In this document: piece by piece, positions 6,977 to 53,934 of the stretch
How the letters are laid out: each line of letters opens with the position of its first letter
How positions within the stretch are numbered: the stretch's first letter is position 1
NCBI GenBank assembly: GCA_039970455.1
Contig: JBDVLX010000174.1
Coordinates: 7,626-71,625 of the forward strand
Length of the DNA stretch: 64,000 bases
Reading direction: 5' to 3'
Origin: Marinomonas sp.
GTDB lineage: Bacteria; Pseudomonadota; Gammaproteobacteria; Pseudomonadales; Marinomonadaceae
Made by a program: the position numbers and the translations under genes
The notes under the pieces: model-generated
What the model saw: the letters and a program-made list of their open reading frames with translations, nothing else
Told to the model about the DNA's origin: nothing
The model's database searches: none

Positions 6977-9841
6977 ATGAAAATGTTCCAAAGATTACTT
7001 TTCAGTCTACTCTTTTTTTGCGCTTCTCTGTCTCATGCGCATGAAGACCCTCTGTCTGCGTATTTTGTAGACCTTTGGACTTCTCACGATGGATTGCCTC
7101 ACAACAGCATCAGCGCCATAGCTCAAACGGAAGATGGCTATCTTTGGTTCGCGACATGGGAAGGTGTCGCTCGTTATAACGGCCGAAGTTTTATCTTGTT
7201 TGATCGAAATGAACAAACACACATGCAAGATTCAGGAAGCAAAACATTAGTCGCCGATGAGAATAATCAGCTTTGGGTTGGTGGTGCCCGTGGCAGCTTA
7301 GTCACTCGACAAGGGAAAGTTTGGCGGCCAAATGCGAGTGCCCCCGGTTTAATCAACCACGTACTTATCGACAACAGTAAGAACGTATGGATTGCCATTG
7401 AAAGCTTAGGTGTGATCTTTCGCCCCTTTATCCAAGAAGGCCAATATGGCGAGAATAAATGGTTAATCAAAGACACTAGCGCTTATCGCTTGGCAAAAAA
7501 CAGCCATGGAGTTTACGCTGGCACAGCAAACGGACTCTATCAATTAACTCCCACTTCTGCAGATAAAATCGATACCGATCTCTTCAACCGCGCAACCTAC
7601 ATATCGACTGGCAATAATGGTGACATCCTAATAGGTGCAGAGAATGGAGCCTGGCGTTGGGATGGTGAGTCTATTCACTCTTTCACAAGCGAGCTCAATA
7701 ACCAAAAAATCACTATGGTTGAACAAGACCATAATGGTTCCTATTGGTTTGGCACCATCAACAAAGGTGTCGCTCGTTTAAGCGGCGACGAGCTAGAATT
7801 TATTAGTGTGGAAGATGGTTTGCCACACAACCGTATTTTGTCTTGGTTCGAAGACATAGAACACAGCATTTGGATAGGGACCAATGGCGGCGTTATTCGA
7901 TTAAGAAAATCACTTTTCAACACGACTAGCCGAGTCTCAGGACTCATTGGTAATTACGCTAGAACCCTGTTAGAAACAAGTGACAATCGTTTGTTAGTTG
8001 GAACCAACAGCGGTTTAACCGTAATGAAAGGTGGTCATGTTGATCTCACAATACCGCCTTCTGAAGGTTTGTCTACCTTAAGCCTAGCGAAGAAAAAAGG
8101 TGGCGGAGCTTGGGTGGGAACCTATCAAAAAGGTCTTCTTAGCTGGAAAAATGGCGTCTTACAAGCAGAATTAGACGATAAGTCTGGTCTTCCTACCAAC
8201 CAAGTCAGAGCCATTTTAGAAGACAGCAATGATAACCTTTGGGTTGGGACCACTTTAGGTATCATCAAAAAATCGCCAGATGGCCAATTAGAACATATCA
8301 CCAAGCTTACTCACGGCTTATACGATGATTATGTCATGGCATTAGCAGAAGATGAGCTAGGCCAAATATGGGTTGGTACGGGTTTAGGGGCGGGGTACTG
8401 GAAAGACAACCAGTTTCATCCTCTGGATTTAAGTTCACAGGAAGGCGCCCAGTATGTGTTTGGCTTCTATCTCGAACCAGGTTACGTCTGGCTAGCCACA
8501 GACCGAGGCATTGTTCGATATAGACAATCCGATAAAAGTTTGGCACTCATCGGAAGGCCTCAAGGTTTATTAATCGATAAGTTTTTTCAGATTATAAAAG
8601 ACGACCAAGAGCACTTTTGGCTGTCCAGTAACCGCGGCATTTGGAAGATAAATTACCCTGATGCTCATGCTGTCGCAGACGGACGTCAAACAAGTATTAG
8701 CTTTGAGCATTATGATGAAAATGACGGCATGTCGAGCAGCCAAGCAAATGGCGGTTCAAACCCAGCTGCAGTAAAAACCAAAGACGGCCGAGTACACTTT
8801 GCCACCGCAGATGGTGTGGCTTCTATTCAGCCCAACAGCTTAATCCAACAAGCAAATGCGCCCTTACCTTTAATACTCGAATCGGTGAGTTTCGACTTAC
8901 ATGACATCAACCCAGAAGACGTTGTTATTGCCCCTGCAGGCACGAACCGAGTTTCCATTGCTTATGTAGGTTTGAGCTACATTATGTCTCAGCGCCTACA
9001 ATATCGTACCAAACTAGAAGGTTTTGATGACGAATGGGTGTATCGCGGCAACAAAGCTACTGCAGACTACACAAACCTTCCTCCTGGCCATTATCAGTTT
9101 TACGTCAGCGTTCGCTATCCGTACGGTGAATGGAACAAGAGCGTTCTCTTGTATGAATTCACGTTAGATCCTTTACTCTGGCAACGTAAAGACATTATAG
9201 GCATCACCTTTTTATCCATCATAATCCTCATCGGATCTATCATTGTTTGGCGAGTGAATATTCTTAAAAAGAGTGAGCTGAGACTAAAAGAACAAGTGGA
9301 AGAGCAAACTCAAACTCTGCGTTTACAATCCAAGATGTTTGAAGCGCTCTCCCAAGAAGATGCTTTAACTGGGTTGGCAAATCGCCGAGCCTTCGATGCG
9401 AATTTGAAAAGGCTTTACGAAGCGGCCAAAGCAGACAAACAAGCTCTGTATTTGGCGATTTTAGACATAGACTACTTCAAGAATATTAATGACCAATACT
9501 CCCACTTAGTGGGTGATAAGGCGCTGATTTGCTTTGCGAATATTCTAAATGAACTGGCGACCAGTAAAGATCATGTGGCTCGCTGGGGTGGAGAAGAGTT
9601 CACCATGCTTTATTTAGACGATAATCCGAAGCAGTTCTTCGATAATGTTCATCAACGCATTGAACAAAATAACTATGATCACATCGAAAAAGGCATAAAA
9701 ATTACCGCGAGCATTGGTGTGGCTGGCGGCATTCAGTTAGACGATTATGAAACCACTTTGAAGCAAGCAGATAATGCCTTGTTGAAGGCCAAACATAATG
9801 GCCGAAACAGAGTCGAGTTTTATCAAGACCCAACGTCATAA
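6977..9841 (+). CDS. Diguanylate cyclase with periplasmic two-component-regulator beta-propellers and Y_Y_Y domain
   Basis: Signal peptide, repeated DGLP/LW(F/I)GT propeller motifs, YRTKLEGFDDEW...YTNLPPGHYQF, one TM, then DALTGLANRR and RWGGEEF. Confidence 0.95.
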   Translation: MKMFQRLLFSLLFFCASLSHAHEDPLSAYFVDLWTSHDGLPHNSISAIAQTEDGYLWFATWEGVARYNGRSFILFDRNEQTHMQDSGSKTLVADENNQLWVGGARGSLVTRQGKVWRPNASAPGLINHVLIDNSKNVWIAIESLGVIFRPFIQEGQYGENKWLIKDTSAYRLAKNSHGVYAGTANGLYQLTPTSADKIDTDLFNRATYISTGNNGDILIGAENGAWRWDGESIHSFTSELNNQKITMVEQDHNGSYWFGTINKGVARLSGDELEFISVEDGLPHNRILSWFEDIEHSIWIGTNGGVIRLRKSLFNTTSRVSGLIGNYARTLLETSDNRLLVGTNSGLTVMKGGHVDLTIPPSEGLSTLSLAKKKGGGAWVGTYQKGLLSWKNGVLQAELDDKSGLPTNQVRAILEDSNDNLWVGTTLGIIKKSPDGQLEHITKLTHGLYDDYVMALAEDELGQIWVGTGLGAGYWKDNQFHPLDLSSQEGAQYVFGFYLEPGYVWLATDRGIVRYRQSDKSLALIGRPQGLLIDKFFQIIKDDQEHFWLSSNRGIWKINYPDAHAVADGRQTSISFEHYDENDGMSSSQANGGSNPAAVKTKDGRVHFATADGVASIQPNSLIQQANAPLPLILESVSFDLHDINPEDVVIAPAGTNRVSIAYVGLSYIMSQRLQYRTKLEGFDDEWVYRGNKATADYTNLPPGHYQFYVSVRYPYGEWNKSVLLYEFTLDPLLWQRKDIIGITFLSIIILIGSIIVWRVNILKKSELRLKEQVEEQTQTLRLQSKMFEALSQEDALTGLANRRAFDANLKRLYEAAKADKQALYLAILDIDYFKNINDQYSHLVGDKALICFANILNELATSKDHVARWGGEEFTMLYLDDNPKQFFDNVHQRIEQNNYDHIEKGIKITASIGVAGGIQLDDYETTLKQADNALLKAKHNGRNRVEFYQDPTS

Positions 9842-10719
9842 TCCAGCTGATTCAACAAACTCTGCCGTGCGTGAGCGACTCGCGCTTGGCGCAGAGCACT
9901 AGGCAACCAAAGCAAGTAATATTGAATCTCTCGCGTGCCAATAGGCGAAGGTAATTCAACTAACTCGCCTTTGGCGATCTGCTCTCGACAGAGAAATTCT
10001 GGCATCACAGACCAACCAAAACCTTTTACTAATAACTTCCGTTGAGAGCGTAGATCTTGACTTACCATGGCAGGCACAAGCCCTTCGACACTGATGCGGT
10101 TTTTCACCAGCCAATGGTCTATCAAAGACAACTCTAAGTTGTAAGCCAACAAAGGTTCCGAGCGAATCGCCTCACCATACTTTTCAGCAGCAAGTAACCT
10201 TTCTACCACACTTGGAGAAGCAACTGGCAACACTTTGTTGGTAAAAATGGCTTCACTTTTCAAACGCGTATCAAATGCAGGCTGAGCTGACACGCCTAAA
10301 TCGCAATGGCCCTCTAGAAGCAAACTGGTAATCAAATCGTTATTGCCTGTATGCAAACGCACTTTTATTCCAGATTCCAGCAAGGGCAAAAGTTGCTCGC
10401 TCAGGATTTCCTCTAGAAATCCGCCATATCCAACAATTTGCAGCACACCTTCAATGTCCATTGAACGCGCTCTGGCTGACGATAACGCCGCCTCGGCGAC
10501 GTCCAGTTTGTCACCTATGTCTGCCGCCAATTCATCTGCAGCGGAAGTTGGCTTCACGCCACTTGGGGAACGTTCAAAAAGCGGACGACCGATAACGACT
10601 TCAAGCCCAGATATATGCTGGGATACAGCCGGTTGAGTTAGGTTCAAAGAGCGCGCTGCACTGCTAATGGAACGCTGGCGATACACCTCGATAAAAGTGC
10701 GCATTCTGGATAAAGACAT
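9823..10719 (-). CDS. LysR family transcriptional regulator
   Basis: HTH RSISSAARSLNLTQPAVSQHISGLE; 298 aa; divergent from the HlyD gene. Confidence 0.95.
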   Translation of the reverse strand: MSLSRMRTFIEVYRQRSISSAARSLNLTQPAVSQHISGLEVVIGRPLFERSPSGVKPTSAADELAADIGDKLDVAEAALSSARARSMDIEGVLQIVGYGGFLEEILSEQLLPLLESGIKVRLHTGNNDLITSLLLEGHCDLGVSAQPAFDTRLKSEAIFTNKVLPVASPSVVERLLAAEKYGEAIRSEPLLAYNLELSLIDHWLVKNRISVEGLVPAMVSQDLRSQRKLLVKGFGWSVMPEFLCREQIAKGELVELPSPIGTREIQYYLLWLPSALRQARVAHARQSLLNQLDYDVGS

Positions 10720-10862
10720 AAAAGACCATAAATTTATTTATACCCTATAGAAAATACCATTGTTACCTATTGATGGCCAACCTCCCTTAAGATCCTTTCT
10801 CCATACTCGCACAACGATTTTGCCCGCGAGCCAACGAACACAAAGACGTTAAACAAGAGATT

Positions 10863-11768
10863 ATGAAACGAGATATTTACGCCCTCTTCACGACCATAGT
10901 TCTAATTCTTGCTATCGCATTCAGTGCTTTTTTAATCATTAGTGACAACGCCATTCCCTTCACGACTCAGGCGACGGTGAAAACCTCTGCGATTGAAGTG
11001 GTTCCCGAAGTACAAGGTTACATCAGTGACATCATGGTGGCAGAAGGCCAAACCGTCACTCTTGGTACGCCTTTATTAAGAATCGATCCGACCGACTACA
11101 AGATTGCCCAGAAGAAAGCGCAAGCCAGTGTGATGCAAGCTGAAAGCCAGTGGCAGCAAACACAAAGTCACCTCAGTCGCGTAAAGTCTTTGTATCAATC
11201 AAAATCCGTTAGCAAAGAGTCTTTAGACGAAGCCGAAGCGGCAGATCAAAGCGCGAAAGCTGCTTTACTATCCGCTCAATCCGACGCCGAAACGGCGCAA
11301 CGAAACTTAGATCACACTTTAGTTGTCGCCAAACAGTCCGGTGTGGTGACAAACCTAGCTTATCGAGTGGGCATGCGCATCAGCACAACCTCTCCTGTTT
11401 TGCATCTTATCGATGAAGACAATCTATGGCTTGATGCCGACTTCACAGAAAAAGGTTTGCCTGCGTTAAGAGAGAATAAAGCCGTAAACGTGGTGTTTGA
11501 TGCACAACCCAATGAAGTGTATTCCGGCCATATTTTTGCCATCGACTCCGCAATCTTGTCTGGCGTTGCAGATTCAAGTCAACTTGCACAAGTCACAGAT
11601 GAAAGCCGCTGGATTCGTGCTCAGCAAAAAGCCCGTGTGCGCATTCAACTTGATGAAGCTCCTGAACACATCATCGCAGGCAGCCGAGCCAGTGTCATGA
11701 TGGATGACGAAGGTCATGTCTCTGACATTTGGATGACGATATTGAGCTGGATGAGATACCTTTACTAA
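10863..11768 (+). CDS. HlyD family membrane fusion/secretion protein
   Basis: N-terminal TM, VVPEVQGYISDIMVAEGQTV lipoyl-like motif, coiled-coil hairpin, ADFTEK. Confidence 0.92.
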   Translation: MKRDIYALFTTIVLILAIAFSAFLIISDNAIPFTTQATVKTSAIEVVPEVQGYISDIMVAEGQTVTLGTPLLRIDPTDYKIAQKKAQASVMQAESQWQQTQSHLSRVKSLYQSKSVSKESLDEAEAADQSAKAALLSAQSDAETAQRNLDHTLVVAKQSGVVTNLAYRVGMRISTTSPVLHLIDEDNLWLDADFTEKGLPALRENKAVNVVFDAQPNEVYSGHIFAIDSAILSGVADSSQLAQVTDESRWIRAQQKARVRIQLDEAPEHIIAGSRASVMMDDEGHVSDIWMTILSWMRYLY

Positions 11769-12772
11769 TGTACGAAATCATACGCAAAACCTTAATTATT
11801 GTGATTTGCCTGATGCTCAGTAAGGTACTTCACATGACGGTCAGTGTGTATATGGTGCTGTTTGCCATCGTGCTGGCAAACTTCAGCTTCTCAAAGCACA
11901 TAGTAGATTTGCTCAAACCTTTGCTGCCGTCATTATTTATTACTTTTGTCGCCGTCATTGTGAATCAGCTGTTTGCAGGCCACCCTTTTATTATTTGGAC
12001 CTGCTGCATCGTGTTTTTCGATTCTGTACGTCGTCGAGCAAACAATAATATTCGTATCACAATGGCGACTCTGCCTTTGTTTATGATTATCTTCATCACC
12101 ACATACCAAAACAGCACAACATACAATTCCGCTATTGTTGGCTTTTTCTGGGACATGATGATCAGTGCTGGCGTGGCGGTTTTGGTGACCAGTTTTATAA
12201 ACCATGTCATGCCAGTCAAAGCAAAACCTGTCATGCCAACGGTGGTATTCCAAGAAGTCACTGGCACAGATAGATTGAAGCTGCTGATCTTGGTCGGTGG
12301 TGGGTTGGCCTTCATCATGATCAACGAAGTCACCAGCGCGGTGTTTTGTCTCGTGCCATTGGTGACCTCTGCGATGCAGCCTTCTCACGACCAAATGAAG
12401 AGCCATTCTAGAGAAAAAATGCTGACGCAAATCGGTGGCTGTAGCTTAGCTGTCTTGATGTCTTTGTTTTACTCTGGAACAGAGGTAAATATCTTCTCTT
12501 ATTTCATCATCTCTTCATTGCTGATTTTTCTGATGATCTTTTGGACGCATCATTCAGCCGTCGAAGACAGAGCCATTCACGCCGATGCATTAATGGGCTT
12601 TTTAATTCCATATCAGCTCTATATTGCGCAATATGGCAACAACTTCGGCCTAAACTCCATCTCATTACGCGCTATTGAACTCTTCATTGCCCTCGCCGTC
12701 ATTTACATGGCAGGCCATTGGCTGGATAAATTATCACAGCCAAAACAAGACGATAAACAGCTAAACCACTAG
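11768..12772 (+). CDS. DUF2955/FUSC-like inner membrane protein
   Basis: ~10 hydrophobic segments in two repeats; TAATG coupling to the HlyD gene at 11766-11770. Confidence 0.75.
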   Translation: MYEIIRKTLIIVICLMLSKVLHMTVSVYMVLFAIVLANFSFSKHIVDLLKPLLPSLFITFVAVIVNQLFAGHPFIIWTCCIVFFDSVRRRANNNIRITMATLPLFMIIFITTYQNSTTYNSAIVGFFWDMMISAGVAVLVTSFINHVMPVKAKPVMPTVVFQEVTGTDRLKLLILVGGGLAFIMINEVTSAVFCLVPLVTSAMQPSHDQMKSHSREKMLTQIGGCSLAVLMSLFYSGTEVNIFSYFIISSLLIFLMIFWTHHSAVEDRAIHADALMGFLIPYQLYIAQYGNNFGLNSISLRAIELFIALAVIYMAGHWLDKLSQPKQDDKQLNH

Positions 12773-12946: not shown

Positions 12947-13654
12947 ATGACAGAAAGGCATTACCGTTATTTACAACAGTACTTCCATGATTTAATTTCC
13001 CAAAAAAAGTTACCTTATGGAACAAAGCTACCTTCGGAAAGAGAGCTTGGAGAGCAATTCAAAGTTTCTCGTGTAACAGTTCGCCAAGCCTTGCAGCATC
13101 TTGAAGCAGAGGGCGTAATTTATCGACAAAATCGCCGAGGCTGGTTTGTCACACCTCCTGCTGTAATTTATGATCCAGCTAAGCATTTAAGCTTCAATTT
13201 ATACGTTTCTAAGCAAGGCTATACACCACATACCGATAAGCTTATGCAACAAGTTGAACCGGCAAATAAAGAAATTGCTCAATTAATGAGCATAGAGAAA
13301 GGGGCACCAATACTGTTTCTACACCGCCGTCGTTACATTGATCGTAGACCTGTTTTAATTGAAAAAATGTATATCAACATTGACCTCTTACCGGGAATTG
13401 AAAACGAAGATCTAACTCAATCTTTAAGTCAATTATTGCTAAATAAATATCAGCATCAATATCGTGATATGGACCTCTCATTCACAGCAACAGCCTTACC
13501 TGAGCATGTTGCGAAAGATCTTGCTACATCTACCGGTCAAGCGGGTTTGCATGTAAAACGCATCAATTTTACTGACGATAAAAAAGTGTTAGAAATTGAT
13601 TATGAATTTTGGCGCCATGATGCTGTAAAAATTGAAATTTCCATTCGTGATTAA
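12947..13654 (+). CDS. phnR: GntR/HutC family phosphonate utilisation regulator PhnR
   Basis: KLPSERELGEQFKVSRVTVRQAL wHTH, YRQNRRGWFV, C-terminal EFWRHDA UTRA motif; precedes the phnS-type gene. Confidence 0.88.
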   Translation: MTERHYRYLQQYFHDLISQKKLPYGTKLPSERELGEQFKVSRVTVRQALQHLEAEGVIYRQNRRGWFVTPPAVIYDPAKHLSFNLYVSKQGYTPHTDKLMQQVEPANKEIAQLMSIEKGAPILFLHRRRYIDRRPVLIEKMYINIDLLPGIENEDLTQSLSQLLLNKYQHQYRDMDLSFTATALPEHVAKDLATSTGQAGLHVKRINFTDDKKVLEIDYEFWRHDAVKIEISIRD

Positions 13655-13783
13655 TGGTTTCAATCCCTAAATTAAAGACGATATGTCTTCTTTTTTATCG
13701 CTCCTTTTTTTTCAAATATCACCCATAAATTTTCTTGATCATCACATGAATGAAATATTTGGCATTCATTTTGCCTCTGTTAA

Positions 13784-13799
13784 TCTGGTATATACCAGA
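13784..13799. promoter_or_regulatory. Perfect 16-bp palindrome TCTGGTATATACCAGA, likely PhnR operator
   Basis: Seen directly 27 nt before the phnS ATG; fits the TGGT-N4-ACCA type of site used by HutC-subfamily GntR regulators. Confidence 0.8.
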
Positions 13800-13826
13800 A
13801 AACTTTTTGATGCATGGAGAAAGAAA

Positions 13827-14855
13827 ATGATACAGAAGACCCTCATGAAACGTCTGGCTGTTTTAGCAGGCATCACTAGCATATCCATTGCTGCACACGC
13901 AGCTAAAACAGAATTAACTGTCTATACAGCAGTAGAAGCTGAAGACCTGAAAAAGTACGCAGCACGTTTTAATGCAGAATACCCTGATATTAAAATCAAC
14001 TGGGTTCGTGACTCTACAGGAGTTGTTACAGCAAAGTTACTCGCTGAAAAAAACAACCCTCAAGCGGATGTTGTTTGGGGTCTTGCGGCAACCAGTTTAA
14101 TGCTGTTGAAAAACGAAGGCGTATTACAATCTTACAAACCTGTTGGCTATGATCAGCTTTCACCAAAATTTAAAGATACAAGTAATGAACCAGTTTGGAC
14201 TGGTATGGACGCTTGGATTGCTGCAGTTTGTTACAACACCGTAGAAGCCGGTAAGTTAGGGTTACCAAAACCCACATCATGGGCAGATCTGACGAACCCT
14301 GTTTATAAAGATCACATTATCATGCCTAATCCGAATTCTTCTGGTACAGGCTTTTTGGATGTAAGTAGCTGGTTGCAAATCTTCGGTGAAAAAGAGGGTT
14401 GGCAGTTTATGGACGGTTTGCATAAAAACATCAACCGCTATACACATTCAGGCTCAAAACCTTGCAAATTGGCAGCTTCAGGAGAAATTCCGATAGGAAT
14501 TTCATTTGCCTTTCGTGCCGCGAAATCTAAGAAACAAGGCGCACCATTGGACATCGTTTTCCCAACAGAAGGTTTAGGTTGGGATATGGAAGCAACAGCG
14601 ATAGTTAAAGGCACTGATAACTTAAAAGCTGCACAAACTTTAGCCAATTGGTCTGTTTCTCGAAAAGCGAACGAGATGTATAACGAAGGCTATGCTGTTG
14701 TCGCTATGCCAGGAGTAGCGAAATCGATTGAATTCTTCCCAGACAACGCTGAATCGTTAATGATCGATAATGATTTTGAATGGTCTGCACAGAACCGTTC
14801 AGAGATCTTAGCTGAGTGGCAAAAGCGCTACGACGGTAAGAGTGAAGCAAAATAA
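13827..14855 (+). CDS. phnS: Putative 2-aminoethylphosphonate ABC transporter substrate-binding protein (PhnS2/AepS type)
   Basis: Signal peptide, LTVYTAVEAE, WVRDSTGVVTAKLLAEK, MPNPNSSGTG, YTHSGSKPC; GGAG RBS before ATG 13827. Confidence 0.88.
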   Translation: MIQKTLMKRLAVLAGITSISIAAHAAKTELTVYTAVEAEDLKKYAARFNAEYPDIKINWVRDSTGVVTAKLLAEKNNPQADVVWGLAATSLMLLKNEGVLQSYKPVGYDQLSPKFKDTSNEPVWTGMDAWIAAVCYNTVEAGKLGLPKPTSWADLTNPVYKDHIIMPNPNSSGTGFLDVSSWLQIFGEKEGWQFMDGLHKNINRYTHSGSKPCKLAASGEIPIGISFAFRAAKSKKQGAPLDIVFPTEGLGWDMEATAIVKGTDNLKAAQTLANWSVSRKANEMYNEGYAVVAMPGVAKSIEFFPDNAESLMIDNDFEWSAQNRSEILAEWQKRYDGKSEAK

Positions 14856-14866
14856 GATAAGTTAAC

Positions 14867-14899
14867 AAATGGGAATAAAGTGCCGCTTTATTCCCATTT
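14867..14899 (+). terminator. 14-bp perfect stem-loop after the binding-protein gene
   Basis: AAATGGGAATAAAG-TGCCG-CTTTATTCCCATTT followed by T-rich sequence. Confidence 0.75.
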
Positions 14900-14918
14900 T
14901 TATTGGAAATCTATGATT

Positions 14919-14981
14919 GCGTTTTTTGTAATAAATACACAATAACGTCGACTATTTCTTTGTATTTATTACAAAAAACGC
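14919..14981. repeat. 21-bp perfect inverted repeat with 21-nt spacer
   Basis: GCGTTTTTTGTAATAAATACA (14919-14939) and TGTATTTATTACAAAAAACGC (14961-14981). Confidence 0.9.
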
Positions 14982-15003
14982 CTTAATTCGAGGAGTGCAT
15001 GCC

Positions 15004-16092
15004 GTGTCCAGTCCAACCTATTTAGAAATGAATAACATCGACCAAATGTTTGGCTCATACCAAGCCCTTAATAATGTGTCTCTTAACATCACAGAAGGTG
15101 AATTTGTGTGTTTTTTGGGGCCATCTGGGTGTGGTAAAACCAGCTTATTACGCATTATTGCTGGATTAGATATGCCAACAAGCGGCTCTATTTTACAAGT
15201 TGGCAAAGACATTACATACGCTCCGATCAAACAGCGGGATTTTGGTATTGTGTTTCAATCTTATGCACTGTTTCCGAATTTAACCGTCAGTGACAATATT
15301 GCTTATGGTTTATCGGCAAAGCATGCTACTGAACGAATGACCGCGAATGATCGACGAGCTCGCGTGACAGAATTATTAGTCACCGTTGGCTTGTCTGGTA
15401 GCGAAGAAAAGTACCCAGCGCAACTTTCAGGAGGGCAGCAACAGCGTGTCGCTCTCGCGCGTGCGTTAGCCACATCGCCCGGTTTATTGTTATTGGATGA
15501 GCCTTTATCGGCATTAGATGCACGTGTGCGTGCGCACTTACGCCAAGAGATAAAGCAACTACAAGAGAAGCTAGGCGTGACCACAATAATGGTAACGCAC
15601 GATCAAGAAGAAGCCTTAACAATGGCCGATAAGATCGTTGTTATGAACCAAGGTGTGATTGAGCAAATCGGTTCACCTCAAGAAGTGTATACGAAGCCAA
15701 ATACGCCTTTTGTCGCCGACTTTGTCGGTGAAATGAATTTCCTCAGCGCTAAGGTGAGTGGCGCGGGCGAGATGGCATCTGGTGGTTTGACATTAAATTA
15801 TAGTCAAGCATCTGATTTGGTTATTGGTGACAGTGCTCAATTGGCGATTCGCCCAGAAGATGTGCGCTTTCATACGGAAAACACGCAAGACAACATACTC
15901 AATGCAACGGTACTGCATTTGGAGTTTCTTGGGTCACGCATGCGCTCATTATTGCAGCTTGAGAATCACGAACGTCCTATTTTGGCGGACATTTCGATGA
16001 ATGAAATGTCACGCTTGAACTTCACCCAAGGTCAAAAAATCACATGTCAGCTACCGGCGGATCGTTTGCATGTCTTTGGAGGTTCTGTATGA
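15004..16092 (+). CDS. phnT: 2-aminoethylphosphonate-type ABC transporter ATP-binding protein (PhnT2 type)
   Basis: [24 protein letters not shown]-terminal TOBE-like region; GTG 15004 lies 8 nt after GAGGAG. Confidence 0.9.
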   Translation: MSSPTYLEMNNIDQMFGSYQALNNVSLNITEGEFVCFLGPSGCGKTSLLRIIAGLDMPTSGSILQVGKDITYAPIKQRDFGIVFQSYALFPNLTVSDNIAYGLSAKHATERMTANDRRARVTELLVTVGLSGSEEKYPAQLSGGQQQRVALARALATSPGLLLLDEPLSALDARVRAHLRQEIKQLQEKLGVTTIMVTHDQEEALTMADKIVVMNQGVIEQIGSPQEVYTKPNTPFVADFVGEMNFLSAKVSGAGEMASGGLTLNYSQASDLVIGDSAQLAIRPEDVRFHTENTQDNILNATVLHLEFLGSRMRSLLQLENHERPILADISMNEMSRLNFTQGQKITCQLPADRLHVFGGSV

Positions 16093-17819
16093 GCGACTCA
16101 TCGTTGACGCCAGCGGTGTCGATTGGATCAAAAAAAGCATCTAAAAACCCTTGGTATGGTCGTCGCAGTGCTGATGAATGGTCTCTTGGTGGAATCCTAA
16201 TCATTGGTGTGCTTGGTTTGCTCATTTGCGTTGTGATGCCAATTTACACCTTATTATCAAAGAGTGTAGAGGACAAAGACGGCCACTTTATTGGGTTGGC
16301 TAACTTTGCCAAATTTATTGAAACCCCAAGTTTATTCAGTTCGATTAGTAACTCTCTCTTCATCGCTTTGGTCTCGACATTGATCGTGACCAGTCTGTCT
16401 TTTTTGACGGCCTATGCCATTTGCCGAACAAGAATCCCATTAAAGGGGTTATTTCGTATGGTTTTGGTGCTGCCTATTTTAGCGCCATCTCTGTTGCCAG
16501 CCATCAGCTTGGTTTATCTCTTTGGTAATCAAGGGATTCTAAAAGAGGTATTAATGGGAGAAAGCATTTATGGCCCTATTGGTATTATCATAGGTTCGTG
16601 CTTTTGGACCTTTCCTCACGCTTTGATGATCATGTTAACCGCTCTGGCAAACACAGATGCGCGTTTGTATGAATCTACGGAAGTGCTTGGCGCATCGCCT
16701 ATGCGTACCTTTTTTACGGTGACATTACCGGCGGCTAAGTACGGCATTATCAGTGTTGCCTTCGTTATTTTTACCTTGGTAATCACCGATTTTGGCGTAC
16801 CAAAAGTGATTGGCGGTCAATTCAATGTGTTAGCTACCGACATCTATAAACAAGTAATCGGTCAGCAGAATTTCGAAATGGGAGCCACCGTCAGTGTGAT
16901 TTTGTTATTGCCTGCCATTTTGACTTTTATTACTGACCGTTGGTTACAGCGTCGTCAATCGGCTCTTCTTACTTCGAAAGCCGTGCCTTGGGTTGCGCCT
17001 ATTCGAAAGCGTATTGATAGTGCGTTCTTTGTGTTATTACTTTTGGTTTCCGGTGTTATTTTGGGTGTGATCGCGATGGCGGTTTACGCTTCACTGGTGA
17101 CTTTCTGGCCTTATAATTTGAGCTTATCGCTGAAAAATTACAACTTCGATTTAATGGACGGAGGCGGTTGGGATTCTTATTTTAACTCCATAGAGCTTGC
17201 GCTTTACACGGCAGCGATTGGCACAGGGTTTATTTTCTTCCAGTCTTATTTAGTAGCGAAACTCGCTGGTTTCAAATTGTTGAAATGGTTCTTCCATCTG
17301 TTTGCTATTTTGCCTTTGGCGGTACCAGGATTAGTACTCGGCTTGGCGTATATCTTTTTCTTTAATGCACCGAATAATCCACTTAACGGCATTTATGGCA
17401 CCATGATTATTTTAGTGGTTTGTACTATCAGCCATTTTTATACAGTGTGTCATTTGACGGCAACGACGGCTTTGAAGCAAATCGACTCGGAGTTTGAATC
17501 GGTTTCTGCATCCTTAAAAGTCCCTCAAATAGTGACATTTTGGCGTGTTTCTTTACCTGTATGTATGCCTGCTGTTTTAGACATTGCGAGCTACTTATTT
17601 GTGAATGCGATGACCACTGTGTCTGCTGTGGTGTTTTTGTATTCTTACAACACAAGCTTGGCTTCGGTTGCTGTGTTAAACATGGACGATGCTGGCGATA
17701 TTGCACCCGCCGCCGCCATGGCCGTAATGATTATGTTGACCTGTATGGTGGCGCGATTAGTCCATTGGATATTGGGTAATGTGGTTTTGAAATACACCCA
17801 AGATTGGCGTCAGCGTTAG
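16089..17819 (+). CDS. phnU: 2-aminoethylphosphonate-type ABC transporter fused permease (PhnU2 type)
   Basis: Two permease repeats with EAA-like loops (LYESTEVLGAS; FESVSASLKVP); ATGA overlap with the ATPase gene. Confidence 0.88.
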   Translation: MSDSSLTPAVSIGSKKASKNPWYGRRSADEWSLGGILIIGVLGLLICVVMPIYTLLSKSVEDKDGHFIGLANFAKFIETPSLFSSISNSLFIALVSTLIVTSLSFLTAYAICRTRIPLKGLFRMVLVLPILAPSLLPAISLVYLFGNQGILKEVLMGESIYGPIGIIIGSCFWTFPHALMIMLTALANTDARLYESTEVLGASPMRTFFTVTLPAAKYGIISVAFVIFTLVITDFGVPKVIGGQFNVLATDIYKQVIGQQNFEMGATVSVILLLPAILTFITDRWLQRRQSALLTSKAVPWVAPIRKRIDSAFFVLLLLVSGVILGVIAMAVYASLVTFWPYNLSLSLKNYNFDLMDGGGWDSYFNSIELALYTAAIGTGFIFFQSYLVAKLAGFKLLKWFFHLFAILPLAVPGLVLGLAYIFFFNAPNNPLNGIYGTMIILVVCTISHFYTVCHLTATTALKQIDSEFESVSASLKVPQIVTFWRVSLPVCMPAVLDIASYLFVNAMTTVSAVVFLYSYNTSLASVAVLNMDDAGDIAPAAAMAVMIMLTCMVARLVHWILGNVVLKYTQDWRQR

Positions 17820-17832
17820 GAGCAAATACTCT

Positions 17833-18753
17833 ATGTCATTAACCGCCATAGTACTGATCTTAATATCGACTTTTATGCATGCAGGTTGGAACTTTTTTGG
17901 TAAAAAGAGCAGCCCGACACTGGGCTTTTTCTTTCTTACTATGATTGGCGGCGTGGTTGTTTTTTTACCTCTTCTCGTCCTTTATATTGATCTGATATTT
18001 GCATTAAACCAACAGATATTATGGCTCTTGCTGTGCTCTGGTTTTTTTCAATCGGTTTATCTTTGGGGGCTAGCGGAAGCTTATCGTTCAGGGGATATGT
18101 CAATTGCTTATCCCACTGCCCGCTCTTCACCCTTGATTATTGTGGGTATATCAAGCTTTTTTCTTGGACAACAAGAAACCATTTCCCTACAAGCTGTTAT
18201 CGGTATTGCGATGATTGTGGTTGGGTGCTTGTTCATTCCTTTGCCTAGTTTCAAAGAGTTTAAGCTTAAAAACTATCGCAACCGCACAACGGCGTTTGCC
18301 ATTGTGGCAGCGTTCGCCACCGCTGGATATTCCCTAGTGGATAATCAGGCAACGGCATTGATGCGCGGCTTGATGGATGCAGACGGATTACCTATTGCCA
18401 GTGCAGGCGAAGTGGCCTTGGTGTATGTCTCCTTACAAAGCGCCTTTGCCGTGATTTGGATGGTTTGGTTTGTACTTCGAACAGCTAAGCAACGCAAAGA
18501 CTTTGTGTTACTCACAAAATCTCAATGGAGAGTTGGTTTGCTAACCGCCGCGTTGATGTTGGGAACTTACTCCTTAGTGATTCTGAGCATGGCGTTTGTT
18601 GATAATGTGAGTTATGTCGTCGCATTACGTCAGTTTAGTATTCCTTTAGGCGTTTTATTTGCCGTCATTGGCTTTGGGGAAAGTCTTAAACTACCCAAAA
18701 TCATGGGTGTGATGATTACTTTTATAGGCTTGATTGCCGTAGCGCTTGGGTAG
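17833..18753 (+). CDS. EamA/DMT family transporter
   Basis: ~10 TM; AYRSGDMSIAYPTARSSP and VSYVVALRQFSI motifs. Confidence 0.9.
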   Translation: MSLTAIVLILISTFMHAGWNFFGKKSSPTLGFFFLTMIGGVVVFLPLLVLYIDLIFALNQQILWLLLCSGFFQSVYLWGLAEAYRSGDMSIAYPTARSSPLIIVGISSFFLGQQETISLQAVIGIAMIVVGCLFIPLPSFKEFKLKNYRNRTTAFAIVAAFATAGYSLVDNQATALMRGLMDADGLPIASAGEVALVYVSLQSAFAVIWMVWFVLRTAKQRKDFVLLTKSQWRVGLLTAALMLGTYSLVILSMAFVDNVSYVVALRQFSIPLGVLFAVIGFGESLKLPKIMGVMITFIGLIAVALG

Positions 18754-18807
18754 ATAAGATATTTTACCTTTATATTTTTACATTGGATAAACAGTTAAGG
18801 AGCCGTC

Positions 18808-19461
18808 ATGGCATTGGCATTTTTTGATCTGGATAACACGTTAGTGAAAGGCGACACCGCACAGGCTTTTTCTGAATATTTAGCGGCAAGCGCCTTGCCA
18901 ACAGCGGATGACTTTTTAGCGGTTAATGATAAGTACATGGAAGAATACGATGATGGCACACTCAATTTAGATGAGTATATGCACTATACGTTAGCGCCAT
19001 TGTTTACTTTAGACAGTGCCAAAGTAGACACTCTTATTCGTGATTTTATAGACACTGTCGTTAGCACAATGATTCCTAAGAGTACTCATACACTACTGTC
19101 CAAGCATAAAGACGCTGGCGATGAGATTGTCATTATTTCGGCTACTGGCATTCATTTAGTTGAGCCGATTGCCAAATATCTGGGCGTAGAAAATGCACTT
19201 GGTGTCAATATCGAGCTTATTGATGGTTACATTACAGGTAAGTTGGTTGGCGTGCCTACCTTCCGTGAAGGCAAGGTCATACATGCCGAACAGTGGGCCA
19301 AAGATCATGGTTATACATTAGATGAAACCTACTTTTACAGCGATTCCCATAATGATTTACCCTTATTGGAAAAAGTACGTTATCCGATAGCTGTTAATCC
19401 GGATTCTGTTCTAGAGAAAATAGCCAAAGATCGAAATTGGCTGATTGTTGAGATGTGTTGA
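18808..19461 (+). CDS. HAD-IB (SerB-like) phosphatase
   Basis: Motif I FFDLDNTL, motif II IISAT, motif III GKV, motif IV YSDSHNDLPLL. Confidence 0.93.
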   Translation: MALAFFDLDNTLVKGDTAQAFSEYLAASALPTADDFLAVNDKYMEEYDDGTLNLDEYMHYTLAPLFTLDSAKVDTLIRDFIDTVVSTMIPKSTHTLLSKHKDAGDEIVIISATGIHLVEPIAKYLGVENALGVNIELIDGYITGKLVGVPTFREGKVIHAEQWAKDHGYTLDETYFYSDSHNDLPLLEKVRYPIAVNPDSVLEKIAKDRNWLIVEMC

Positions 19462-19555
19462 TTTAAATTTCCCAATTACTCTATATAAAACCAATACAGA
19501 TATCACCTTAACATGACATTGGTATGAAATAGCCTTACTAGGAGTAAATAACAGC

Positions 19556-20833
19556 GTGAAGCTAGACGTTGAGACTTTAGACACTTCGATTGAAGTGAGA
19601 ACAACAGTGACCAAAAGCAAAGAATCCATACTGGAAATGTATGTGTTTTTGCCTAAAGATATGGCGATACGTGAACGCAACGTAAACGCCAACATACTGC
19701 TAGATTCAAAAACGTCTCGCTATCATTACTCTATTTCTAAATCGACATTTCCATTATTGAAGCTAAAAGCAGAAAGACCTGAAAACAAAGAAGATTTTCC
19801 GATTTTCCTAAAGGCTTTCAAACTAAAAGTCTCTAAACTCATCCAAGACATTACAAACAACAACGAAACACCTAAGAAATTTCTCGACACCCTATCGTCC
19901 TTATTAACAGACTTAAGAAGTACCCCCACAACAGAGATAAACAAAAAAGACTTTATTGTTGCCGATGAGCTTTGCTCTTATTATGCCGAGCAAATGACTC
20001 TTTTCTATTGTGACAAATGTAAGAAGAGAAAAATCAGTGCCGTTAATTTTGATGAGCTCATCGACTTTGCCAACGAAGAAAGAACCTATAGAAAACAGAA
20101 ATATGGGTTGAAGTCGAAAGAGGCTCAACACATGCGCAGAAAGGAAGATCATTTCTGTAAATCTATCAATATCGCTCAACAAAACCGAAAATTGGGCGTT
20201 GTCCGAGAACAGATAGCCTTTAGCATTAGTGCCTTTTTATCCATGTTGTTAACGACATTGATCGTTTTCTATTTCCAACGAGGCTACGGGACGGTGTCGT
20301 TTGCTGTCTTCATGGCACTTTGTATTAGCTATATTTTTAAAGATCGATTTAAAGAGATTTTCCGAAATTATGTTGTAAAGAAGATGAACAAAGGGAAGTT
20401 CAGCATTAAAAGCACCTTGATTGACAGCACCAAAAAAATTGTGGGGTATTGCTATGATTTAGCTGAATTTAAAACACCAGAAGAAGAGATTTTAAACATA
20501 AGAGGAACCGGAAAATTCACCAAAAAAGATGAAGATGAAGTGGTGATTTATTATAAGAAAAAATACGATATGAATGATAATTTCAAAAACGATTTCACGC
20601 AAATCCGAGACTCTGTCAGCATAAACATCAACACCTTATTAGAGTTCCTTCCAGACGTGACATTGCGATATATGAGCTTGGAAAAAGACGAGCTAATGAA
20701 ACGAAAATTCTCCATGTTGCATGATCTAAATATCATTTTCCGCCTGAATGGAAAAAAGATAGAACGCTATCGACTTAAGATTTCCCATTCCAATATAGAA
20801 AAGCTAGAGCGCGTAAAACTACCAACAAGATAA
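19556..20833 (+). CDS. Hypothetical 425-aa protein with a central two-TM hairpin
   Basis: Long ORF (GTG start after AGGAG), AT-rich; hydrophobic pair at ~aa 219-262 flanked by charged soluble domains. Confidence 0.85.
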   Translation: MKLDVETLDTSIEVRTTVTKSKESILEMYVFLPKDMAIRERNVNANILLDSKTSRYHYSISKSTFPLLKLKAERPENKEDFPIFLKAFKLKVSKLIQDITNNNETPKKFLDTLSSLLTDLRSTPTTEINKKDFIVADELCSYYAEQMTLFYCDKCKKRKISAVNFDELIDFANEERTYRKQKYGLKSKEAQHMRRKEDHFCKSINIAQQNRKLGVVREQIAFSISAFLSMLLTTLIVFYFQRGYGTVSFAVFMALCISYIFKDRFKEIFRNYVVKKMNKGKFSIKSTLIDSTKKIVGYCYDLAEFKTPEEEILNIRGTGKFTKKDEDEVVIYYKKKYDMNDNFKNDFTQIRDSVSININTLLEFLPDVTLRYMSLEKDELMKRKFSMLHDLNIIFRLNGKKIERYRLKISHSNIEKLERVKLPTR

Positions 20834-40022: not shown

Positions 40023-40718
40023 GTGACCGGTAAAAAAGTATTAATTATTGATGACGAGTCTTCAATACGCGAAATGATCGCGATTGCTCTAGAAATGGCA
40101 GGCTATGAATATTTAGAAGCCGAAAATATTCAGCAAGCCCACGAAATTATCGTCGACCATCGACCAGATTTAATTCTTGTTGATTGGATGATGCCGGGCG
40201 GCAGTGGCATTGAGCTCACTCGTCGCTTGAAGAAAGACAACACAACGGCTGAAATTCCAGTCATCATGTTGACGGCGAAAAGTGAAGAAGACAACAAAAT
40301 CCAAGGCTTAGAAGTCGGTGCGGATGACTACATTACCAAACCTTTCTCTCCTCGTGAATTGGTTGCGAGATTAAAAGCCGTATTGCGCCGAGCAACACCT
40401 CAAGGCATTGATGAACCGATTGAAATTGAAGGGTTAATGCTAGACCCTATCAGTCAACGAGTCACAATAGGGGCTCGCCCTTTGGATATGGGGCCAACGG
40501 AATACAGATTGCTAAAATTCTTAATGACACACCAAGAACGCGCCTACTCTAGAGCACAACTTCTAGATCAGGTTTGGGGTGGTAATGTCTATGTAGAAGA
40601 GCGCACCGTTGATGTTCATATTCGTCGTTTACGCAAAGCAATTGGCAGTTCTCATGATTTCTTGATACAAACCGTTCGCGGAACTGGCTACCGATTTTCA
40701 GCAAAAAGGTCAGCATGA
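40023..40718 (+). CDS. phoB: Phosphate regulon response regulator PhoB
   Basis: LVDWMMPGGSG, GADDYITKPFSPRELVARLK, RTVDVHIRRLRK; GTG start after GAGG. Confidence 0.97.
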   Translation: MTGKKVLIIDDESSIREMIAIALEMAGYEYLEAENIQQAHEIIVDHRPDLILVDWMMPGGSGIELTRRLKKDNTTAEIPVIMLTAKSEEDNKIQGLEVGADDYITKPFSPRELVARLKAVLRRATPQGIDEPIEIEGLMLDPISQRVTIGARPLDMGPTEYRLLKFLMTHQERAYSRAQLLDQVWGGNVYVEERTVDVHIRRLRKAIGSSHDFLIQTVRGTGYRFSAKRSA

Positions 40719-52965: not shown

Positions 52966-53934
52966 TTAGTTAATGCCTAAAGTATCAAGGTATTTATCAG
53001 CAACTTTAGCCGGTAGAGGTACGTAACCGTCTTTTACAACAACCTCTTGACCCATTTTCGAAAGAACCATTTTAACGAATTCACGCTGTAGTGGTGCTAG
53101 TGGCTTGTTAGGTGCTTTGTTTACGTAAACGTAAAGGAAGCGAGACAGTGGGTATTTACCAGCTGCTGCGTTTTCTGGCGTCGCTTCTACTAATGCGCCA
53201 CCTTCTTTCTTAGAAAGAGGTAATGCACGTACAGAAGACGTTTTGTAACCGATACCAGAGTAACCAATACTGTTAAGAGAAGTAGAAACAGACTGTACAA
53301 CAGAAGCAGAACCAGGCTGTTCGTTTACAGAGTTTTTGAAGTCACCTTTGAAAAGTGCGTTGTCTTTGAAGTAACCGTAAGTACCAGATACTGAGTTACG
53401 ACCGAACAATTGAACGTCACGGTTAGCCCAAGCACCAGTCAAACCTGCTTTACCCCAGTTAGTGATGTCTTCGCTGTGGCCACCTTTACGAGTAGAAGAG
53501 AAGATCGCATCAACTTCAGGAAGAGACAAACCTTTTACTGGGTTATCTTTGTGTACGAAAACTGCTAGAGCGTCGATAGCAACTGGGATAGCCGTTGGCT
53601 TGTAACCGAATTTCTTCTCAAACGCTGCAATTTCTTTGTCTTTCATAGTACGAGACATAGGACCGAAGTTAGACGTGCCTTCTGTCAATGCTGGTGGCGC
53701 AGTAGAAGAACCAGCCGCTTGAATTTGGATGTTTACATTTGGGTATAGACGTTTGAAGTCTTCAGCCCATAATGTCATCAAGTTAGCCAAAGTATCAGAA
53801 CCAACACTTGAGATGTTACCAGAAACACCGCTAGCCTTAGTATAAGTATTCAAACCTGCATCAACGTCCGCAACAGCGTTAAAAGAAACACTTGCCGCTG
53901 CTGTCATAGCTAAACCCGCAACTAGTTTTTTCAT
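52966..53934 (-). CDS. pstS: Phosphate ABC transporter substrate-binding protein PstS
   Basis: Signal peptide, [46 protein letters not shown]. Confidence 0.96.

Follow-up and report, generated by a model that had tools for sequence, protein, structure and literature searches.

A cluster of six genes lies at 12947..19461 of a 64,000-nucleotide (nt) stretch of Marinomonas sp. DNA (contig JBDVLX010000174.1; the whole stretch is called the window below), from an assembly that is 99.96% complete in 207 contigs. The genes encode a PhnR-like regulator, a three-gene ATP-binding cassette (ABC) transporter of the type linked to 2-aminoethylphosphonate (AEP), an EamA membrane protein and a HAD-IB phosphatase; the phosphonate-degradation genes phnW and phnX are absent. 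An earlier reading of the same DNA, made from the sequence alone, had described six co-oriented genes, a DLDNT motif in the HAD protein and a palindromic operator. Six open reading frames (ORFs) on one strand were indeed present, and profile searches (NCBIfam with curated cut-offs, plus Pfam) placed them in the families named. The nearest named relatives are from Marinomonas. The features, in window coordinates with lengths in base pairs (bp) or amino acids (aa), are:

12947..13654, plus strand: PhnR-like GntR/UTRA repressor, 235 aa; TIGR03337 at 287.1 bits (cut-off 296.75, best match by far), PF00392 and PF07702
13739..13756, plus strand: degenerate Pho-box-like direct repeat with an 11-bp period; 11/18 consensus matches, supported by position only
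13767-13772, plus strand: -10-like hexamer, 10 nt after the repeat
13784..13799, no strand assigned: palindromic operator TCTGGTATATACCAGA, 16 bp, putative PhnR site; motif found 5' of phnS2 in related loci
13827..14855, plus strand: PhnS2/AepX periplasmic binding protein, 342 aa; TIGR03261 at 537.7 (cut-off 392.75)
14995..16092, plus strand: PhnT2/AepV ABC ATPase, 365 aa; TIGR03265 at 519.6 (cut-off 457.7)
16089..17819, plus strand: PhnU2/AepW fused double permease, 576 aa; TIGR03262 at 818.3 (cut-off 593.25)
17833..18753, plus strand: EamA/DMT membrane protein, 306 aa, phosphonate-associated DUF6 type; TIGR03340 phn_DUF6 at 185.9, under the cut-off of 288.15, and PF00892
18808..19461, plus strand: HAD-IB phosphatase with the DLDNT motif, 217 aa, no predicted membrane segment; TIGR01490 at 143.3 (cut-off 98.3)

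PhnS2 begins at 13827 and not at an ATG further upstream (13683), from which translation would run through the operator. The genes phnT2 and phnU2 overlap by ATGA, 13 nt separate phnU2 from the EamA gene and 54 nt separate this from the HAD gene, spacings compatible with a single predicted transcript. Scans for sigma-70 promoters (7 versus 16.9) and for terminators (10 versus 6.6) stayed at chance level. A long inverted repeat followed by T's lies in the gap between phnS2 and phnT2 (about 14868-14905) and may stabilise the binding-protein mRNA or attenuate the downstream genes. The regulator misses its profile cut-off by about 10 bits, with no other profile close, and is 66-78% identical to its counterparts in phnWX-less Marinomonas clusters and 55-58% identical to those in the phnWX-bearing sister clusters described below. 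All three transporter proteins exceed their cut-offs and are of the AepXVW type. The closeness to AepXVW was set not via AepX of S. stellulata but via Sinorhizobium meliloti SM11, where a locus with LysR, phnW and phnY (L294) encodes a binding protein to which PhnS2 is 67% identical. According to Murphy et al. 2021 (PMC8316502), aepXVW typically stand beside phnWX or phnWAY, and the SM11 locus has the arrangement given there for AepXVW. The present locus shares with these systems the three-gene transporter and the pocket columns of the binding protein; unlike them, it has no phnW, phnX or phnA, in the cluster or in the genome.

The lack of phnW, phnX, phnA, phnY and phnZ, first noted for the cluster, was borne out over the whole genome. 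No protein passed the profile cut-offs for phnW, phnX, phnJ or phnA, no orthologue of phnZ, pbfA or phnY was found, and tblastn with PhnW, PhnX, PbfA, PhnY, PhnZ and the PbfC-like oxidase of related loci returned nothing, or distant paralogues of 20-32% identity. Nor did phnWX turn up elsewhere under the same operator; the operator profile gave one strong site in the genome, 5' of phnS2 (27.5 bits), with a runner-up of 15.6 bits in a coding region. An operator-like site at C115:5286, inside a coding region and scoring far lower, was taken as chance. A 759-aa ORF, possibly secreted (G000:C115:5476-7752), has a weaker operator-like palindrome about 190 nt 5', inside a divergent gene, which is probably also chance. 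No phosphoenolpyruvate (PEP) mutase passed the cut-off, hence there is no sign of a phosphonate-decoration pathway, and a link to phosphonate biosynthesis was not supported.

The operator precedes phnS2 in 36 of 37 related loci, whether phnWX are present or not, and in 7 of 8 further loci from phnWX-bearing sister clusters; it is retained in each of the 21 other Marinomonas loci that were read, and in many clusters it also precedes phnW. At locus L178 the HAD gene is transcribed separately with an operator and a Pho-like repeat of its own, which would tie it to the same regulon. The sequence-only reading had seen no Pho box before phnS. When the promoters of 20 relatives were aligned, a repeat of 11-bp period appeared 45-49 nt 5' of the operator, followed by a 10-nt spacer and a -10-like hexamer. 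It matches the consensus at 13 or more of 18 positions in 19 of the 20, a level reached by 205 of 42,000 shuffles; the repeat in the window, at 11/18, is equalled by 4,039 of 42,000 and is not significant alone. With a position weight matrix built from the relatives the window repeat scores 14.7, matched by 40 of 6.68 million genome positions. The 18-position scoring used what we take to be the Pho consensus, and the repeat presumably has a Pho function. On the same scoring the pstS promoter of this genome reaches 15 and that of phoB, which is present, 14. The absence of a Pho box thus appears wrong for the lineage and is uncertain for this strain. The window also contains phoB (about 40032-40700) and pstS (about 53014-53934), both preceded by a Pho-box-like site, and a minus-strand repeat of this kind (13/18) near 19513-19530.

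A survey of 64 Marinomonas genomes found phnS2 over the cut-off in 24 and an orthologue of the HAD gene (about 60% identity or more) in 23, beside a housekeeping copy at about 40%. The two occur together in 21 genomes, where EamA and HAD are co-conserved with phnSTU. The layout there is phnR-S-T-U-EamA-HAD, or U-EamA-HAD with phnS2 4-5 kb 5' in short-flank reads (G047 and G037); in G057 the cluster is divided between two contigs. The genes phnW and phnX occur in 4 of the 64 genomes and in none of the 21; phnA is absent from all 64 (the PhnA profile control was positive in 2/2), phnJ is found in 10, two of them with the cluster, and a phnZ-like gene in six, one of them with the cluster. Altogether 18 of the 21 cluster genomes lack phnW, phnX, phnA, phnJ and phnZ. 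Because the 21 genomes are kin, the loss counts as one event. Locus L138 (G040) carries phnX-pbfA-phnW with phnR and no phnS2 transporter, which L136 and L137 do have.

The source of the cluster was recognised from loci outside the genus. A HAD search over 401 genomes of the order gave no close orthologue outside Marinomonas among the matches listed; close orthologues were present in 9 of 263 genomes of the family of G299, and eight loci were fetched (G452, G459-G462, G465, G682 and G695); proteins of this clade carry names from Hahella and Alkalimarinus. All eight have the order S-T-U-phnW-phnX-EamA-HAD, with a flavin adenine dinucleotide (FAD) oxidase gene before HAD in three and a phnZ-like gene after it in seven. 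EamA orthologues (55-60% identical) follow phnX in every one, and the HAD orthologues are 52-56% identical. In the window the EamA gene begins 13 nt 3' of phnU2, at the place held by phnW-phnX in these sister clusters. In a quick tree of S2 and U2 the Marinomonas sequences form one clade (support 100), which joins the sister clusters with a support of 99 and falls within the wider set of phnWX and phnWAY clusters. The two sets of loci thus share gene order, operator, orthologous EamA and HAD and sister positions in the tree; unlike the Marinomonas locus, the sister clusters keep phnW, phnX and mostly phnZ. As judged from gene order and tree, the Marinomonas cluster is the parent cluster minus phnWX, the product of an old clean deletion and not of a gene swap. 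The idea that EamA and HAD had come in place of phnWX is therefore given up, since both adjoin phnWX in 8/8 sister loci and are standing members of the parent cluster. Of a wider set of 80 phnS2 loci, 21 have EamA (15 alongside phnWX, seven of these without HAD) and 17 have HAD-IB (nine alongside phnWX); DUF6 in phnX operons has been noted before (PMC3266647). A metagenome scan with the HAD query P0038 was uninformative: none of its 80 loci had phnS2, phnW, phnX or EamA nearby, and the 12 placed in a tree were of the housekeeping type. Two plasmid matches, H56 and H49, are HADs that do not belong to clusters of this kind.

The same end state was reached a second time. Marinospirillum locus L113 has the same six-gene order on a separate tree branch, beside Nitrincola clusters that retain phnWX, and no phnX, phnJ or phnA was found in its genome, a single genome of unstated completeness; it is an independent loss of phnWX, in one genome. 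The reverse is seen at L041 (5645-17038), which is nested in the phnWX-less clade and has phnWX next to the same transporter. This locus is a mosaic, with HAD-phnX-phnW divergent from a phnR of 36% identity, a Marinomonas-type S-T-U-EamA and phnZ; a 411-aa PF01663/sulfatase-like gene occupies the place of the HAD gene, and a different HAD lies upstream. It is an apparent regain of phnWX and suggests that the transporter still carries AEP.

We then asked how the remaining genes have evolved, using the ratio of non-synonymous to synonymous substitution rates (dN/dS) over 19 phnWX-less loci. Only 12-37 of 171 pairs were usable, as 134-159 pairs per gene were dropped for saturation at silent sites. 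Median pairwise values were 0.028 for phnR, 0.059 for S2, 0.044 for T2, 0.031 for U2, 0.068 for EamA and 0.104 for HAD, and those in the phnWX-bearing sister clusters were similar. Low dN/dS together with silent-site saturation means that the module is old and maintained: the six genes have long outlasted the loss of phnWX. These values bear on the view that the cluster is a slowly decaying relic, in which the HAD lingers as a spare histidinol-phosphatase (HolPase) or a general phosphatase and the transporter makes a minor contribution to phosphate import. Such decay would agree with the patchy spread of the cluster (21/64), with G059 (L127), which retains only HAD, and G060 (L128), which retains only EamA-HAD, neither with regulator or transporter, with frameshifts in L044 and L134, and with the worn Pho-box-like repeat of the window; in addition, PA1143 and PA3255, phosphatases active on p-nitrophenyl phosphate, rescue a PA0335 mutant through a side HolPase activity (PMC12220765). 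However, dN/dS of 0.03-0.06 in the transporter and 0.03 in the regulator over saturating silent divergence, an operator kept in all the other Marinomonas loci, the clean 13-nt junction and the same end state in Marinospirillum all speak against decay, and we regard it as very improbable. The genomes with the remnants, G059 and G060, have C-P lyase.

The ligand of the transporter was approached through a model of PhnS2 (predicted local distance difference test score, pLDDT, 90). Its fold is closest to the sugar-phosphate binder AfuA (template modelling (TM) score 0.8), and the phosphate-ester binders AfuA, VcA0625 and P5PA rank ahead of Salmonella PhnS. In alignment the AfuA phosphate residues Ser37 and Thr150 (PMC4546632) correspond to T64 and T174, and its sugar residues His205, Asp206 and Glu229 to F229, R230 and D253; transport of sugar phosphates was set aside, as the sugar-binding residues are not kept. 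The acidic residues E37, D62 and E255 are invariant. None of the 27 pocket columns checked separates phnWX-less from phnWX proteins, and the single fixed difference from the sister clusters lies outside the predicted pocket. The ligand class is thus probably unchanged, a small amine with a phosphoryl group, and AEP is probably still bound, because the pocket has no sign of altered specificity. This raises the alternative that the cluster still serves AEP, which would be imported and cleaved by an unrecognised route (or stored or used uncleaved), with HAD and EamA handling by-products. The unchanged pocket and operator and the phnWX of L041 agree with it, as does the high specificity of AepX for AEP among phosphonates (PMC8316502). 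Against it stands a genome with no second operator site, no PhnW-, PhnX-, PhnA-, PhnJ-, PhnZ- or PbfA-type gene and no PEP mutase over the cut-off. Furthermore, we know of no route by which a HAD of the SerB fold could cleave the unactivated C-P bond of AEP. We consider this alternative quite unlikely.

The only enzyme left in the cluster is the HAD-IB protein. Motifs I-IV are intact, the cap is of the helical C1 type, and the model (pLDDT 95) has a TM score of 0.92 to 3FVV and 0.7 to SerB. Its best named match is the Pseudomonas-type histidinol-phosphatase profile NF052360, at 226.1 under the cut-off of 280. Residues D7, D9, D16, Y47, Y57, T113, K156, D179 and D183 are present, with alanine at position 18; the numbering was carried over via the shared catalytic positions, PA0335 itself being outside the alignment. 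In paHisN the HolPase fingerprint is D16, D18 and Y47, with D16 and D18 near the amino group and the imidazole (PMC10804674), and the cluster HAD fails it at A18. Compared with PA0335/paHisN, it shares the HAD-IB fold, the same numbering of D7, D9, T113, K156, D179 and D183, and D16, Y47 and Y57, and differs in having alanine for Asp18, in falling short of NF052360 and in its clade, apart from the housekeeping copy. All cluster-linked HADs readable at column 18 lack Asp18 (five Halomonas rows, cut at the N-terminus, could not be read there), and 39 of 40 other HAD-IB rows have it. The Asp18-bearing rows form a clade (support 99) that includes the separate housekeeping HisN-type gene of this genome, on contig C17 next to rppH-ptsP, and excludes the cluster HAD; in this quick tree the deep branches are open, so that a single origin of the cluster HADs is neither shown nor excluded. 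Locus L072 of SAR324 also has a HAD beside phnU2; this protein sits on a long branch with the housekeeping HisN group and was left out of the cluster type. Two other identities were rejected: phosphoserine phosphatase SerB (TIGR00338 at 33.7 versus 144.15; D16-T-A18 in place of ExI, Y47 in place of Met) and phosphonatase PhnX, as the HAD gives no TIGR01422 match and no protein of the genome passes that cut-off. On these sequence features the HAD is a paralogue of PA0335-type histidinol-phosphatase and a predicted phosphatase with intact catalytic residues. In paHisN the D18A change lowers kcat/KM on histidinol phosphate from 400,000 to 1,370, about 290-fold, and about 31% of the cluster-I homologues of paHisN lack Asp18 (PMC10804674). 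Cap residues are nearly alike in phnWX-less and sister clusters, and the HAD substrate therefore exists in both cluster types. Chemically, histidinol phosphate and phosphoethanolamine differ by one imidazolylmethyl group, which the latter lacks.

A cluster that joins an importer with an AEP-type pocket, predicted Pho-type control and a phosphomonoesterase, its one enzyme, is most simply read as a way of obtaining phosphate from an ester that resembles AEP. We propose, with belief and doubt in equal measure, that under phosphate starvation the cluster serves to scavenge the phosphate monoester of an amino alcohol, most probably O-phosphoethanolamine, a lipid head group and the ester twin of AEP. 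PhoB would activate the operon through the conserved Pho-box-like site, and ligand would lift the PhnR-like repressor from the conserved operator. The transporter AepXVW/PhnS2T2U2, whose family is clear, would import the ester intact; the cytoplasmic HAD-IB, with its catalytic machinery in place, would free the phosphate, and the ethanolamine would pass to EutBC encoded elsewhere. The ancestral cluster may have had one importer and two arms, with PhnWX acting on the C-P compound and the HAD on its C-O-P counterpart; a Marinomonas ancestor, as gene order and tree show, dropped phnWX and retained what would be the ester arm. Every ligand, substrate and regulatory link of this scheme is inferred. 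The sequence-only reading had likewise suggested uptake of an amino-alcohol phosphate ester or a related P compound, from which the HAD would remove the phosphate; the absence of phnWX, the co-conservation, the purifying selection and the HAD's kinship with enzymes acting on histidinol phosphate are consistent with this, and the unchanged pocket weighs against it.

Several other observations also weigh against phosphoethanolamine scavenging. PhoX is present in this genome, and the absence calls rest on profile searches of draft genomes. AepX of S. stellulata binds AEP at 23 nM, and the four ligands tested were all phosphonates, with no esters among them (PMC8316502). A homologue in which alanine replaces Asp18 by nature still reaches 15,500 /M/s with histidinol phosphate and was called a HolPase (PMC10804674). 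The phnWX of L041, the remnants in G059 and G060, the frameshifts and the worn repeat described above are on the same side. On the other hand, Phaeobacter PhoX has a Km of 953 uM for phosphoethanolamine, and a PhoX-independent route is reported, though not identified (PMC10132767), which together leave room for high-affinity uptake. The PhoX and EtoX route of Phaeobacter MED193 (PMC10132767) has the same substrate and end products as the one proposed here; there, hydrolysis takes place outside the cytoplasm and is followed by ethanolamine uptake, whereas the Marinomonas proposal has intact uptake and cytoplasmic hydrolysis.

The imported compound may also be another ester, such as N-methyl-phosphoethanolamine, phosphocholine, aminopropanol phosphate, serinol phosphate or what a PF01663 enzyme of other clusters would release from a diester. 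The PbfC-like FAD oxidase between EamA and HAD in 3/8 sister loci and their PhnZ-like genes (7/8) suggest that substrates with various substituents are handled, and Asp18-less HADs accompany a PF01663 phosphodiesterase-family gene and phnR-/phn-LysR-like regulators in Pseudomonas and in other Marinomonas loci. This genome, however, has no PF01663 protein over the cut-off, the ExI/Met fingerprint that marks phosphoserine phosphatases is missing from the HAD, and the evidence favours no single alternative, so that we hold another ester to be unlikely. The Pseudomonas loci concerned (L172, L174 and L175) have the order GntR-substrate-binding protein-phosphodiesterase-permeases-ATPase-HAD, with an Asp18-less HAD-IB, away from phnWX. 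They share with the Marinomonas operon a phnR-like regulator, a PF13343 binding protein and the Asp18-less HAD, but differ in an unrelated binding-protein subfamily, split permeases, an extra PF01663 enzyme, the lack of EamA and the lack of a match to the Marinomonas operator; two of these genomes have phnX elsewhere. By inference from gene count they fit AepSTU (PPUBIRD1_3890-3895). PA3255 is presumably the last gene of an AepSTU-like operon. AepSTU has only an auxiliary part in AEP uptake (PMC8316502). An Asp18-less HAD-IB paired with a 268-aa protein of the PF01663 alkaline-phosphatase family recurs in L172 (2912-9267), L174, L175 and the Marinomonas loci L183-L186, with phnR-/phn-LysR-like regulators and varied transporters (PF13343 or peptide-type ABC, or none); the pair looks like a diester-to-phosphate module.

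TIGR03340 is the only NCBIfam match of the EamA protein, an EamA within a phnWX cluster scores similarly (199.5), and a search of the ESM Atlas with EamA returned generic EamA clusters only. The suggestion that it exports the amine product is weakly supported and fared poorly: EamA occurs with phnWX and without HAD in 7 of the 80 phnS2 loci, and ethanolamine need not be exported, because EutB (ethanolamine ammonia-lyase) is encoded in 20 of the 21 cluster genomes (55 of the 64 Marinomonas genomes). At a guess, EamA may be an outlet for surplus phosphate, for amine, or for AEP that comes in alongside and that the cells cannot break.

The literature searched, with supplements and most subscription papers outside its scope, described neither a phnWX-less variant nor a HAD-IB protein as an accessory of AEP clusters, and no such account was present in the available text of PMC10574752, PMC8154272, PMC10590968, PMC13576164, PMC12366243, PMC9311074, PMC5082522, PMC9162365 and PMC8041468; the gene-neighbourhood figures in PMC8316502, and what 'Gamma1' stands for in PMC10804674, may affect novelty. 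All component families are known; what appears undescribed, as the earlier reading had suspected, is a conserved operon of them without phnWX, along with the ester arm proposed here. Accessory genes of AEP clusters have repeatedly proved to be new enzymes: PbfA, PbfB-D, PbfF and PbfG. HAD-IB and EamA are companions of such clusters to which the literature searched assigns no role, and here evolution has removed all else. If phosphoethanolamine is imported, the operon becomes a candidate for the route without PhoX that PMC10132767 leaves open, part of the Asp18-less cluster-I homologues of paHisN (PMC10804674) would be reassigned, and high aepX transcription would be a weaker sign of AEP mineralisation alone (PMC8316502). 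Going further, and only tentatively, with doubt outweighing belief, AepX-type importers may in general be dual carriers of AEP and phosphoethanolamine, and the Asp18-less HisN paralogues that recur beside them may form a family, so far unrecognised, of phosphoethanolamine phosphatases of the cytoplasm. In that case the phnWX-less operons of Marinomonas and Marinospirillum would be natural knock-outs in which a PhoX-independent route to the phosphorus of lipid head groups comes to light, many so-called histidinol-phosphatases would be misnamed, and aepX transcripts in the ocean would not be a pure proxy of phosphonate turnover. For Marinomonas, the annotation 'phosphonate transporter' is no proof of phosphonate use.

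Directly 5' of phnR (9823-12772), a LysR regulator gene is divergent from genes for an HlyD-type adaptor and a DUF2955 membrane protein, which are not kept beside the cluster in relatives. Downstream, a 425-aa ORF (19556-20833, plus strand) with two predicted membrane segments has no Pfam or NCBIfam match and resembles only unnamed ESM Atlas clusters of 486-496 aa (0.97); it follows HAD only in the closest relative (74%) and is thus not in the conserved cluster. Contigs from two sequencing runs, which may be the source itself, match the stretch, and one of them spans the phnU2-EamA-HAD junction.

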